Notes under the pieces: model-generated
Seen by the model: only the letters and a program-made list of their open reading frames with translations
Database searches by the model: none
Told to the model about the DNA's origin: nothing
DNA from: Pseudomonadota bacterium
Lineage (GTDB): Bacteria; Pseudomonadota; Alphaproteobacteria; Rhizobiales; Hyphomicrobiaceae
Direction of reading: 5' to 3'
DNA length: 46,935 bases
Assembly (NCBI GenBank): GCA_963205015.1
Contig: CAUJKI010000276.1
Coordinates: 1 to 46,935 of the forward strand
Part shown: in pieces, positions 29,932 through 33,870 of the stretch
Position numbering within the stretch: the stretch's first letter is position 1
Layout of the letters: every line of letters starts with the position of its first letter
Program-made: the position numbers and the translations under genes

Positions 29932-31842
29932 CTACTTGTCCGGCAAGGCGAACTGGATACCGCCGTAAACGGACAGGCCTGGCGTGCCGTAGCCGAGCAC
30001 TGTCTGATACTTCTCGTCCAGCAGGTTCTCCGCACGAATGTAAGCCTTCATTCCAGGAGTGAACTCGTAGGCGACCTTGGCGTTGATCAGCCAGTAGTCA
30101 TCCAACTTCGCACCCCCATCAAGCGTATCGGCGATATATCTGGCGATCACGTTGGCCTGGATCTTGTCCGTTGGCCGCAGGTCAAGACCGACGGAAAGAC
30201 TGTGCCGCGGCACCCGTGCCAGCCGAGCGCCGCTCGCCTGCTCGGTATCGGTGTAGGTGTACCCGCTCGTCACCGTAATGCCGGAGGAAATCTTCGCCGC
30301 CGCAGTCAGCTCGACACCTTCGCGCTTGGTCACGCCGGGCACGTTGATCAGACAGGGAACACCAGGCGGGCCGCATGTAGGGTCAAACGTGATCAGGTTG
30401 AGTGTATCGATCTCGAAGTAGGTGGCCGCGAGCTTGAACCTACCATTGTAGAAGCCCTGCTCGATGCCGACATCCCAGCTCTCGCTCTCCTCAGGGAGAA
30501 GATTAGGGTTGCCGTACTCCGGATACCAAGGCGGGTAGTTGGTGTACATCTCATCCAACGAGGGCGCACGGAAGCCGGTCCCTCTGCTGGCCCGGAACTT
30601 GGTTTCAGTGCCGGGGACGAGATAGGCGCCAGTGATGCGGTGCGTACTGAAGTCACCAAAATTGCTATGATCATCGATACGCCCACCAGCAGTCAGGATG
30701 AGGCCAGGAATCGGCTCGGCCATAAGCTGAGCGTAGACGCTGGCGACGTCGGCAGAGAACCTGCTGCTTGGATCATTGCTGCTGCGCGCACGCGTCTCTT
30801 CCCAATCACCCCCGAAGAGTAGCGACAGCCGCTCGTTGAACTTCAAGACACCCTTGTACTCGGCCTTGACGCGATCCCCTTCGAACCAATAGGTCCGTGC
30901 TCCAGAGCTGAAGCCGTCGCGTTCGATCCGCATGGCCTGAACCGCGAATGTGTTCTGAAGGGCGCCATTCAGCAGATAGAATTCAGTTCCGACGCGCGCA
31001 GCCTGCTGAAAATACTTCGCGCTGTCCGCGGTATCGGTAGGAGGCCAGTCGAGTTCGACGTTGGCTCTGGTGGAGCGGGCTGCAAAGAAGATCTTGGCAC
31101 TCGGCGACAGATAGTACTCACCGCGCCCAGAGAACGTCAGATTGCGATAACCGTCGTCTTCAGTGCCAGCAGCGGCGGCCGAAAAGCCGTCCGTGTTCAC
31201 GCCCTGGACGGTGAAGGAGATGTTGCTGCCGTCCGCAGTCAGGTAACCGGCTGTGTAGGCGCCGCGCCACGTATTGTAGGCGCCATACTCGACGCCGCCG
31301 CTCTGCGAGAAACCGAGCTTCCTTGCGGCCTTCGTCTCGATGGTGATGACGCCGCCGACGGCATCGCCGCCATAGAGTGTGCTCTGCGAGCCCTTCAGGA
31401 CTTCAATTCGAGCAACATCACCCACTAGAAGGTGCTCGAAGTGCGCAGCCGTAACCGTGCTCGACGGATCACTGACATCGATGCCGTCAACCAGGACCTT
31501 GACGTAACCGCCGGTGGTGCCGCGCAAACTGATCGTGGATGTTCCGCCGGGACCAGCTTGAGAGAAATGCACACCCGGCAGCGTCTCGAGGTAGTCCTTG
31601 ACGTATGTCTGCGCGCGCGCCTCGAGTTCTCTCTCGGTGATCACCTCGACCGACGAGCCGACCTTTGCCGCGTCGGTGGGCGTGCGGTTGGCCGAATAGA
31701 TCACGATGCCCTCGAGCGGCGTCGTATCCTGCGCGCTGGCCGACGACGTCATCGCGGGCAACAACGCACATGCGGCAGCGAAAGCCACCCGAGAGACGCC
31801 ACATGCTCGCCTCGGAGCGCGAACACGAACCCGAATAGTCAT
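29932..31842 (-). CDS. btuB: TonB-dependent cobalamin receptor
   Basis: ANRTP....VGSSV.VIT, LPGV, VLVDG, RIEVLKG.QSTLYG.DA.GGVI.I, GFRAPS, NLLDEKY....GY; downstream of a cobalamin riboswitch. Confidence 0.9.
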   Translation of the reverse strand: MTIRVRVRAPRRACGVSRVAFAAACALLPAMTSSASAQDTTPLEGIVIYSANRTPTDAAKVGSSVEVITERELEARAQTYVKDYLETLPGVHFSQAGPGGTSTISLRGTTGGYVKVLVDGIDVSDPSSTVTAAHFEHLLVGDVARIEVLKGSQSTLYGGDAVGGVITIETKAARKLGFSQSGGVEYGAYNTWRGAYTAGYLTADGSNISFTVQGVNTDGFSAAAAGTEDDGYRNLTFSGRGEYYLSPSAKIFFAARSTRANVELDWPPTDTADSAKYFQQAARVGTEFYLLNGALQNTFAVQAMRIERDGFSSGARTYWFEGDRVKAEYKGVLKFNERLSLLFGGDWEETRARSSNDPSSRFSADVASVYAQLMAEPIPGLILTAGGRIDDHSNFGDFSTHRITGAYLVPGTETKFRASRGTGFRAPSLDEMYTNYPPWYPEYGNPNLLPEESESWDVGIEQGFYNGRFKLAATYFEIDTLNLITFDPTCGPPGVPCLINVPGVTKREGVELTAAAKISSGITVTSGYTYTDTEQASGARLARVPRHSLSVGLDLRPTDKIQANVIARYIADTLDGGAKLDDYWLINAKVAYEFTPGMKAYIRAENLLDEKYQTVLGYGTPGLSVYGGIQFALPDK

Positions 31843-32099
31843 ATGACCCCGTCACGATTGATGGACGGGAGCACCGGCAGTTGCGGCCCGAAGGGCTCGG
31901 CGGAAACGGCTGCTGCTTGAGGTGGCCGCCAAAGCAGTCAAATCCCTCAGCAACCCGCTTCAGCGAGCGCTATCTCTGATCTGTCAGTAGGTAAAGAAGA
32001 CCCCGGGCATTTTCTGACGTAGCTCCCAATCGGTTGCACATCAGTCGCCGCTACGGGTAACCGTTCCACCGCGCGGCCCGCACGGGGGATGGGCGACTC

Positions 32100-32315
32100 G
32101 TGCCGGCAGGTCTCCTGGCTCGCGGCTCAAGCATCGCTCTCCAGCCTTCCCGACAGCTTTGGCCGCCGTCAGTGGCATATTTGGAGAGGACTCGCCGCTT
32201 ACAGTTGCGGGCGCAGCCACGGGATCAACGCGGGGGCTCCAAGAAGCGTCGCGTCTCACCGTGTTCCCTCTAGGCCATACGTACCTGCGTACATGTGGCC
32301 TCACCGTCACGCGTT
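32100..32315 (-). ncRNA. Cobalamin riboswitch
   Basis: Minus strand GACGGT...AGGGAACACGGTG...GCCCGCAACTGTAA...GCCACTG...GGGAAGG...GAGCCAGGAGACCTGCC (B12 box), upstream of btuB-cobTCS. Confidence 0.96.
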
Positions 32316-32317
32316 CA

Positions 32318-32346
32318 AATGCGCCTCAAGACACGTTCGCTGTCAA
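32318..32346 (-). promoter_or_regulatory. Putative sigma70 promoter of the B12 operon
   Basis: TTGACA (32346-32341), N17, weak -10 (CGCATT), ending just before the riboswitch. Confidence 0.5.
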
Positions 32347-32450: not shown

Positions 32451-33713
32451 TCATGGTGCCTCGTTCAACGCCTTTCCGTCGGCGGGGCCGGTTGCATCGC
32501 TGCCCATGCGGAAGCGGTGCCCATCAAGGTCTTCGACATTCATCTCGCGCACACCCCAGGGGAAATTGGTCGGCTCCTGACGAATGATCGCACCGCGGCG
32601 GCGATAGTCCTGATAGAGGGCATCGACGTCCTGCACGAAAATCGACATCCAGGCGCCGGGGCAACCCTGCGACCCCTGACAGAGAAAAATGCGAACCTGG
32701 TCGCGATGGACGCATCCGAACGTGGGGGGTGTGCCCCAATCCCATTCCTTGAGGAAGCCCAGCTTTTCGACGTAGTAGGCGATCGACGCCGGGACATCCT
32801 TAACGTTGAGGATCGGAACAGCAGACTCGAACCGATTGGCAGTCTGCTCTGCTGGATCGGCGCCGGCGGCCACCAGCAGCTCGGCAATTCGCGGGTCGGT
32901 CTGGGGCGAAGCATAGCTCAGCGCGGTATTGCCGCGATCATCCTTCATGGTCGGGTCAGCACCGAGCTGCAACAGAAGTTCAACCATTTCCGGCCGATTC
33001 TTCAGCACTGCAAAATGCAGCGGCGTGCGCCGGCGCTCGAACCGGCTCATCTGACGGGACAGAAGCCGCGGGTCGCGCTTCACGAGGGCGCGAACCAGAT
33101 CGGCACGATCGAGCGCTATCGCAGCAAATATGGTCGGATGAGCGCCGCGCGCGAGGAGCCAATCCGCAACCTCCTGCTGGACCGTCCGGAAGCACGTCGC
33201 CCAGCCGATGACGCCCATCTCGTGCTCGTCACCGGCACCATCGATATCGGCGCCTGCGTCCACGAGCCGCTTCGCGACCTCGAGACGACCGTCCTGGGCC
33301 GCCCAGTGCAGCGCGGTCGCATGGTCAAGCCGGTCGCGCTCATTGACATCGACGCCATATCCGAGCAGCAGCTCGACACAATTCAGGTGGCCACCCTCGG
33401 CGGCGAGATGAAGCAGCGGCCGGTTCCACTGCCCACCGGATATGGCGAGCTTGGACGGATGCTCGCCCAGCAGACGCGCAAGCGTGCGCGCATCGCCCTG
33501 AACGGCAGCGGCAACGATCTGGCCGTCCAGACTCAGCGTGTCGACATGCGCTTTGAGAGCGCGCCAACTCGCAAATCCATACTCCCGCGCGATCTCGAGC
33601 TGCGCCTGATGCAGCTTGGCGGCGGGCTCACCGACACGCAGTTCAGCAAGCCGCTCCTTCGCGGATTTCTTCAACCAGTCGAGATTGGGCTGGGCCGGAA
33701 GCGCCTTGGGCAT
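32451..33713 (-). CDS. Fusion of a small helical N-terminal domain, ankyrin repeats and a VOC/bleomycin-resistance-like domain
   Basis: N-terminus LP.QPNLDWLKK.AK...LHQAQLEIAREYGFASW..LKAHV; ankyrin units (PLLHLAA, TALHWAA, TPLHFAV, TALSYA, GAD); C-terminus VPILNV.DV..SIAYY..KLGF...DVDALY...PWG.RE..V.D.DG. Confidence 0.9.
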   Translation of the reverse strand: MPKALPAQPNLDWLKKSAKERLAELRVGEPAAKLHQAQLEIAREYGFASWRALKAHVDTLSLDGQIVAAAVQGDARTLARLLGEHPSKLAISGGQWNRPLLHLAAEGGHLNCVELLLGYGVDVNERDRLDHATALHWAAQDGRLEVAKRLVDAGADIDGAGDEHEMGVIGWATCFRTVQQEVADWLLARGAHPTIFAAIALDRADLVRALVKRDPRLLSRQMSRFERRRTPLHFAVLKNRPEMVELLLQLGADPTMKDDRGNTALSYASPQTDPRIAELLVAAGADPAEQTANRFESAVPILNVKDVPASIAYYVEKLGFLKEWDWGTPPTFGCVHRDQVRIFLCQGSQGCPGAWMSIFVQDVDALYQDYRRRGAIIRQEPTNFPWGVREMNVEDLDGHRFRMGSDATGPADGKALNEAP

Positions 33714-33836
33714 GTGACACCTTCTTTCTCATGCGCCCGGTGTCCGCGTCTCGGGCCAGAAAGAAGATGCTGAAGCACTTGGTAGCTGAGGTGGGTTCAA
33801 CCCTTCACGCGGACCGTCGGTCGCCTGCTCGACCGG
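33714..33836 (-). ncRNA. Candidate structured 5' leader RNA (pseudoknot, RBS-sequestering)
   Basis: 12-bp helix 33758-33769/33718-33729 covering the SD; inner helix 33752-33756/33735-33739; loop 33742-33749 complementary to 33807-33814; 5' hairpin 33818-33835. Confidence 0.65.
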
Positions 33837-33842
33837 AGCCGA

Positions 33843-33870
33843 ATTATCCCAGCTTGGGAACTTCTGTCAA
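33843..33870 (-). promoter_or_regulatory. Sigma70 promoter of the ankyrin-fusion gene
   Basis: TTGACA-N16-GATAAT on the minus strand. Confidence 0.7.

Follow-up and report, generated by a model that had tools for sequence, protein, structure and literature searches.

A portable basic domain and a doubly knotted leader RNA as a candidate self-regulating cassette of bacterial ankyrin and VOC proteins

Introduction

The translational riboswitches SAM-II, preQ1-II and guanidine-III hide the Shine-Dalgarno sequence by means of pseudoknots. At the protein level, TipA and AlbA are parallels to the mycobacterial protein ClpC2. The available part of PMC10030653 describes ClpC2 as repressing its own gene until cyclomarin binds, after which the protein acts as a sponge; operator DNA is bound, reportedly via the C-terminal domain, and the N-terminal domain serves for dimerisation. 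For ribosomal proteins, the available part of PMC3616713 describes that S4 of the E. coli alpha operon binds a double-pseudoknot leader, and that S15 stabilises the pseudoknotted leader of rpsO.

Here, a gene of an alphaproteobacterial contig is compared with these systems. It lies in the window, the whole stretch of 46,935 nucleotides that was analysed, and is preceded by a leader RNA with two pseudoknots. We propose from sequence comparison, at a probability of roughly 0.55, that the small N-terminal domain (NTD) of the protein binds its own leader and represses translation, and that domain and leader would form a portable self-regulation cassette.

Results

Three-part architecture of the protein and its setting

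The 420-aa minus-strand ORF encodes a helical NTD, ankyrin repeats and a VOC domain (Table 1), as an earlier note on this DNA had described from the letters. The basic helical N-terminal domain of ~58 aa seen there is modelled as three helices and holds 10 K/R vs 7 D/E. The several ankyrin repeats were recovered by Pfam (Ank_2, E 2e-41; Ank in 4 stretches), and the VOC domain was verified by a match to PF00903 together with the presence of the motif PWGVREMNVEDLDG. The three-part architecture is conserved, the best 120 of 1480 homologue rows (E<=1e-40) being almost all ~420 aa long with 66-100% identity; the first row is this protein. The closest relatives with named records are Alphaproteobacteria. 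The distribution of the NTD is patchy, and any match to the N-terminal 70 residues was present in 8/61 related genomes.

Table 1 Features of the gene and its leader in the window, and positions of the sister leaders.
Feature	Position	Strand	Basis and remarks
Whole gene, 420 aa	32451..33713	minus	ORF and homologue rows
N-terminal three-helix basic domain (NTD), residues 1-60	33534..33713	minus	Distantly related to the N-terminus of Glyoxalase_8 (PF20066)
Ankyrin repeats, about residues 61-290	32844..33533	minus	Pfam
VOC domain, bleomycin-resistance-protein-like	32496..32843	minus	Pfam, NCBIfam, structure matches; many conserved Trp, two conserved Cys
Sigma70-type promoter, TTGACA-16-GATAAT with TG extension	33843..33870	minus	11/12 matches
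Double-pseudoknot leader RNA (class I)	33714..33836	minus	Covariation; scored at 105 bits by model R1, whose source leaders include the window's own copy and which carries one wrong base pair
P1 hairpin	33819..33834	minus	Covariation; loop AGG 33826-33824
Pseudoknot 1	33826-33824 with 33791-33789	minus	P1 loop AGG pairs with CCT, after P3
P2, two-pair stem	33807..33817	minus	Loop GTCCGC 33814-33809 is the 5' strand of pseudoknot 2
P3 hairpin	33793..33803	minus	Covariation; after conserved RAA
P4 stem	33718..33769	minus	Loop GCGGAC 33747-33742 is the 3' strand of pseudoknot 2
Shine-Dalgarno	33725-33720	minus	Predicted fold; paired by base of P4
Sister leaders	L195-L205, L208-L210, L212, L188, L189		~120-180 nt before the domain match

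The gene had also been called a standalone unit between unrelated operons, and this description stood in part. A sigma70-type promoter of its own precedes it, and the neighbouring genes differ among the five orthologous loci with listed ORFs; on the other side, no terminator-like site was found after the stop codon of the 420-aa gene, and both neighbours are on the same strand. In the window, the gene is flanked by an FAD-oxidoreductase/ABC cluster on one side and, on the other, by a cobalamin riboswitch that precedes a TonB-dependent receptor. This riboswitch (32088-32323, minus strand, 106 bits; receptor at 29932-31842) is ordinary, and since a TTGACA lies directly upstream of it, a promoter of its own is probable. 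The genes with it also include a TonB-like gene and apparent cobalamin salvage genes. A cobalamin riboswitch adjoins the orthologue at L001:2528-2743 as well, and an apparent methylmalonyl-CoA mutase adjoins the orthologue in L007. A vitamin B12 link, considered from the riboswitch near the gene in the window and in L001, was rejected, the riboswitch being found in just 1/20 loci. RNA reads from a small share of one run gave a single 167-nt contig inside the ankyrin part; the leader was without cover, from which nothing follows.

The VOC domain and the ankyrin repeats

The VOC domain matches PF00903 over residues 302-402 with 36.6 bits vs a cut-off of 20.6 and is the most conserved part of the protein (mean 0.83 vs 0.77 and 0.74). 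The bleomycin-binding type assigned to it by the earlier note holds at the level of structure matches: the closest solved structures, 1jie (E 4.8e-7), 4iag, 1byl and 3itw, are bleomycin-binding proteins and TioX. It does not hold at the level of families, with scores of 40.3 for BLMA (NF033156, cut-off 140) and 26.9 for zbmA (cut-off 280). The BLMA-type proteins bind a cationic glycopeptide in an acidic cleft. The domain of this protein is near-neutral overall (13 K/R, 15 D/E), and its cleft is modelled at a pLDDT under 50. Because 40.3 bits lies far from the BLMA cut-off and the domain is nearly neutral, bleomycin is doubtful as the VOC ligand. In metal-dependent VOC enzymes, each module has His/Gln/Glu metal ligands on its first and last strands. 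The strands AVPIL, RIFL, MSIFV and RFRM of this domain, compared by eye and unaligned to a metal-bound enzyme, are without His/Gln/Glu.

A model of the full protein from its sequence alone was of poor quality (pLDDT 58.9). In the ankyrin part (32844-33250, minus strand), residues ~160-235 contain the non-canonical stretches G.GD.He..ViGWAT.F and MSrfE..r.PLH. These stretches are kept across orthologues and VOC-less relatives and may form a ligand or partner site.

The N-terminal domain and its cargos

The NTD was modelled from a 97-row alignment as three helices (11-28, 34-45 and 50-62; pLDDT 80). Within the 97 rows, K/R is conserved at position 15 in 97%, at 19 in 99%, at 43 in 88% and at 54 in 79%; Q38 and GF are conserved as well, and W50 is invariant. 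The copies adjacent to a leader have K/R at 15 and 19 in 31/31, and in the extra copies of two-copy proteins position 19 is not K/R in 6/6. The loss of K19 is a hint only, because the extra copies diverge throughout. Two-NTD proteins, with one copy lacking K19, are found at L054, L062, L069, L071, L077 and L031; at L031, the degenerate copy is the shorter one, which comes first.

Foldseek with the NTD model, a check that the earlier note had proposed, returned nothing at E<=0.001 (best E 1.2), the best VIA-align result had a Z of 4.4 (rmsd 3.0, 52 aligned), and the matches of an Atlas search were under 0.9. A search of solved sequences gave nothing significant, just a chain named JUBO2 at E 0.0035. 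Profile homology was positive: a pairwise hhalign comparison related the NTD to the N-terminus of Glyoxalase_8 at 95.6% (E 1.1e-8). PF20066 was matched by 42/97 NTD members at E<=0.1, and the domain of this protein scored 14.3 and 17.9 bits, below the family cut-off of 23.7. The NTD also matches the N-terminus of PRK05973 (E 0.011). The own genome has no Glyoxalase_8 match, and no function of the Glyoxalase_8/PRK05973 N-terminus was described in the literature searched. With proteins clustered at 50% identity, the unannotated NTD is present in no fewer than 2277 clusters.

The cargo that follows the NTD is exchanged between proteins, as the earlier note had supposed. It consists mostly of ankyrins, and also of VOC alone, TPR, DUF1835, PhyH, LRR, WD40, Clp_N and FliG_C. 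The leader RNA accompanies the NTD whichever cargo follows. Most members of the NTD module are without a VOC domain, which is thus not essential to it.

Structure of the leader RNA

The promoter is not significant alone, because shuffles yield 0.5 +/- 0.8 such sites; its TTGACA is preserved in both aligned relatives. Transcription would start near 33836, giving a leader of ~120 nt. The leader is conserved upstream of the relatives' genes, and a variable linker separates P3 from P4. By predicted fold and covariation, the structured leader overlaps the ribosome-binding site of the gene of its putative binder, a feature of autogenous operators. The Shine-Dalgarno window here has a predicted unpaired probability of 0.05; over all leaders compared, the mean is 0.21 vs 0.48 in shuffles, and the value is lower in 88/107.

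The structure was supported by covariation. In a structure-free mutual information analysis of 112 leaders, the top rank was a pair of pseudoknot 1, which is 96% paired with the types A:T 66, G:C 24, G:T 7, C:G 5 and T:A 5. The pairs of P3, P4 and P2 rank next. The 112 leaders had been chosen with pseudoknot 2 fixed, and that knot was therefore tested on protein-found loci, using 30 of 34 parsed leaders after exclusion of the near-duplicates L001, L009, L011 and L183. Among the 30 aligned leaders, two-sided changes occur in 26/34 base pairs, and the covariation is 0.359 vs 0.180 shuffled (0 of 500) and 0.10-0.15 slid. P2 is paired in 30/30 leaders, with the types C:G, A:U, G:C and U:A. In pseudoknot 2, 4/6 pairs change on both sides; its 100% pairing is in part a product of the parser, which demanded the complement, and the independent copy L235 alters a fifth pair. 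Without pseudoknots, the leader does not fold more stably than its shuffles (z -0.85).

Rfam 15 has no family over the leader in the window (E<=5), the cobalamin riboswitch being the only match, and in two further sets of 20 loci each the leader was unmatched. Nor was the leader RNA found described in the literature searched, the reach of which excludes the supplement of the 224-motif paper (PMC5737381). The RNA family, the NTD and their portability are not described in what was searched; the autoregulatory principle is already known.

The P4 stem of the window copy, at -24.5 kcal/mol, is stable alone, so the default state may be off and need an opener. The NTD could then bind the leader and activate translation by opening P4, as a positive-feedback or bistable switch. 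This direction is improbable. Pseudoknot 2 depends on the P4 loop, and whatever binds the knotted fold would thus be expected to favour the closed stem; moreover, the S4 and S15 precedents repress, as given in the available part of PMC3616713.

Leader and domain occur together

The coupling was followed from both sides. On the RNA side, a scan by sequence pattern gave at least 120 metagenome loci and 2 viral loci. Among the matches listed, 116/122 have an NTD within 420 nt at 15 bits or more. Of the remaining 6, two reach the contig edge, two (L113 and L176) do not score as RNA, and two (L141 and L153) are real RNAs (66.3 and 27.7 bits) in front of frames that are broken early. On the protein side, 38 loci with an NTD score of ~35 bits or more were taken, weaker hits being excluded; this set includes the window and a few near-duplicates. 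A leader is present in 36/38 (34 parsed, 2 more by covariance model), and the two NTD genes L043 and L186 have no scoring leader. The earlier note had made its reading depend in part on the co-occurrence of this N-terminus with a conserved leader, and this half of its test was passed in both directions.

Some loci stand apart from this pattern. Intact leaders are seen ahead of broken genes: the frame at L010:1395 onward has a stop at the invariant Trp, and the frames behind the intact leaders of L141 and L153 end shortly after the start. The leader has been lost at L186 and L206. L043, L053 and L187 are divergent NTD genes with partial leader likeness, on which model R1 is weak or silent. By eye, a GTTCGC/GCGAAC pair lies upstream of L043 and a P3-like hairpin upstream of L053; the upstream regions of the three genes are perhaps further RNA classes.

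The covariance model gave 14 strong hits over 150 genomes. Thirteen of them are model-building loci, and the sole new one, L233 (45.6 bits), precedes an NTD. Similarly, L235, a strong copy from a whole-genome search and outside the model-building set (84.9 bits), precedes an NTD. A weak hit, L034, is a known NTD locus, and seven other weak hits (21-29 bits) are without an NTD downstream and look like noise. The own 5.6-Mb genome, from an assembly that is 95% complete, has one strong RNA hit, one at 16.8 bits and one NTD; by eye, 10/11 of its relaxed-pattern hits are likely noise. The single RNA copy in the genome means that there is no regulon. The second RNA copies in other genomes stand before their own NTD genes. 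With L003 (an Actinomycetota record), L236 (Gemmatimonadota) and the metagenome contigs, the pair reaches at least three phyla. L175, a true RNA and NTD copy, is on an IMG/VR viral contig and may be host sequence.

The leader could instead be a stress-sensing RNA or a riboswitch that responds to a small molecule or an ion; the NTD would then be a constant functional part, for example for dimerisation or targeting. The compact double pseudoknot, the paired Shine-Dalgarno and the many near-invariant letters, with core letters GTCCGCG, AAGGG and CCCACC as expected of a riboswitch, speak for it, as does the lack of a matching RNA-binding fold for the NTD. Riboswitches, however, usually stand before varied genes that share a pathway, whereas the genes here have one 60-aa domain in common and functionally unrelated cargos. 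No confirmed RNA copy was found before an unrelated gene among the 122 matches listed or in the 150 genomes, and the covariation list shows no strong alternative fold that would free the Shine-Dalgarno. A riboswitch is therefore rather unlikely.

In type III toxin-antitoxin systems, RNA antitoxins lie upstream of their genes. In a comparable manner, the protein could be inhibited, localised or tagged by the leader, which would be processed or retained as its cofactor, so that the two form a stable ribonucleoprotein and not a feedback loop. The strict one-to-one coupling, the richness in pseudoknots, the patchy distribution (8/61 related genomes) and the lack of a regulon justifying a sensor are consistent with such a particle. 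It is nevertheless unlikely: Pfam scans show no nuclease or toxin domain among the cargos, the RNA stands as one unit instead of as repeats and extends over the ribosome-binding site, and just 1 true copy was found among 2 viral matches and 4 plasmid records.

A sister RNA class

The Glyoxalase_8-type genes carry a related leader, in which the same two knots were parsed in 18/20; these counts are from a custom parser without shuffle control. The P1 loop of the sister RNA can pair over 4-7 bases with the letters that follow GGTGAA, and a six-base strand with GC at its end is matched by a complement further downstream, in four sequence variants. P2 encloses the inner hairpin, which in class I comes after GAA. 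Model R1 does not score the sister class, and Rfam gave no match to the sister leaders in the loci tested. The cargos of this class include VOC, the Lon substrate-binding domain and the ClpX zinc finger. At L190 and L192, PRK05973-like genes combine a more distant NTD form with an apparent DnaB-type ATPase. A third conserved leader lies upstream of them; in it, CCTCCTCCC and GGGAAAGCATC come after a hairpin.

A tree of 53 domains over 71 columns, the bootstrap of which is not fully settled and the ankyrin labels of which are partly by eye, gave 1 change of RNA class (100/100) and 3 of VOC cargo. The class II rows were chosen by their domain family. This choice and the adjacency of RNA and domain predict the concordance, and the tree therefore indicates that the RNA does not follow the cargo; binding is not implied. 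Since RNA and NTD are adjacent, their inheritance as a block accounts for the tree concordance in full and for the coupling in part. Carried to its end, this would make the leader unrelated to the function of the NTD, both hitch-hiking as one inherited block, in line with their adjacency and the few genes without a leader (L186, L206). We hold this to be very unlikely, as strong, structured selection acts on each of them in no fewer than three phyla and neither was found apart at any frequency, though the downstream cargo is often exchanged.

Discussion

The reading preferred here is repression of translation by the NTD on its own leader. The cassette would consist of the promoter, the doubly knotted leader RNA and the small basic NTD, with a fused, swappable cargo, here the ankyrin repeats and a VOC fold that is probably non-catalytic. 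The RNA tracks one small basic domain and not a pathway, and direct binding is therefore the simplest reading. The NTD on the knotted leader would hold the ribosome-binding stem shut and limit its own synthesis; since pseudoknot 2 requires the P4 loop, the Shine-Dalgarno should stay closed off while the knotted fold is bound. We infer direct binding, repression as its direction and release upon binding of the cargo's ligand or partner.

When the cargo is occupied by a ligand or partner, repression would be released. The VOC domain here would bind a small aromatic or reactive toxic molecule; with this molecule bound, more of the protein would be made, and the molecule would be sequestered by it. 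Where the cargo is of the ligand-binding or protease-adaptor type, the protein would possibly be a self-titrating decoy, like ClpC2 but at the RNA level. A sensor controlling only itself would make sense if the effector is the protein itself, as with ClpC2. The cargo list (binding scaffolds, drug-binding folds and ClpA/C, ClpX and Lon recognition domains) fits a decoy, which is the least supported step of the proposal. The one-component sensor of the earlier note retains its structured leader, coupling and swappable cargo. Its nucleic-acid binding is putative, with conserved basic residues and no match to a known fold, its ligand sensing is likewise putative, and with one RNA copy in the genome no output gene was found.

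More tentatively, a superfamily of plug-in RNA-protein switches is possible, in which two sister leaders, each with its own branch of the NTD as a putative RNA-binding domain, would be joined to binding and protease-adaptor cargos (VOC, ankyrin, TPR, WD40, Clp_N, Lon-N and the ClpX zinc finger) to give self-titrating decoys; occupancy of the cargo would free the leader, and the decoy would amplify its own translation.

A widespread structured RNA with a one-to-one partner domain is a directly testable new RNA-protein pair, for which a 60-residue domain and a 120-nt RNA are enough for binding, structure and reporter work. If the proposal is true, a function would be assigned to an unannotated NTD and to the N-terminus of the Glyoxalase_8 family, the control of many stand-alone bacterial ankyrin genes would be explained, and a compact, modular translational switch would be on offer. 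If the RNA is a riboswitch instead, it would be a new class.

Compared with known systems, the leader resembles the SAM-II, preQ1-II and guanidine-III riboswitches in size, conserved core, pseudoknots and a hidden Shine-Dalgarno, but it has no Rfam match, and what links its genes is one protein domain, not a pathway. BLMA, ShBle, ZbmA and TioX are the best structure matches of the VOC domain, with the N-terminal Val-Pro and aromatic residues aligned; unlike them, the domain here is far under the family cut-offs, near-neutral and fused to ankyrins. No antibiotic genes were recognisable beside the orthologues in the loci listed. Glyoxalase_8 and PRK05973 have a homologous three-helix N-terminal domain, and the Glyoxalase_8 genes have the sister leader; this protein, in contrast, is under the Glyoxalase_8 cut-off and without the family's C-terminal part.

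The likeness to ClpC2, as presented in the available part of PMC10030653, lies in a single self-regulating gene whose product would be the effector and in a ligand domain after a small N-terminal domain; some module members also carry Clp_N, Lon substrate-binding or ClpX zinc-finger cargos. ClpC2 acts on operator DNA, whereas the conserved element here is a structured RNA. What the locus shares with the S4 and S15 leaders of the available part of PMC3616713 is a 5' leader with pseudoknots, located at the ribosome-binding site of the presumed binder's gene. Unlike S4 and S15, the protein here is non-ribosomal, the RNA lies wholly upstream of the start codon and is without an Rfam match, and the putative binder is a small portable domain fused to many unrelated cargos.
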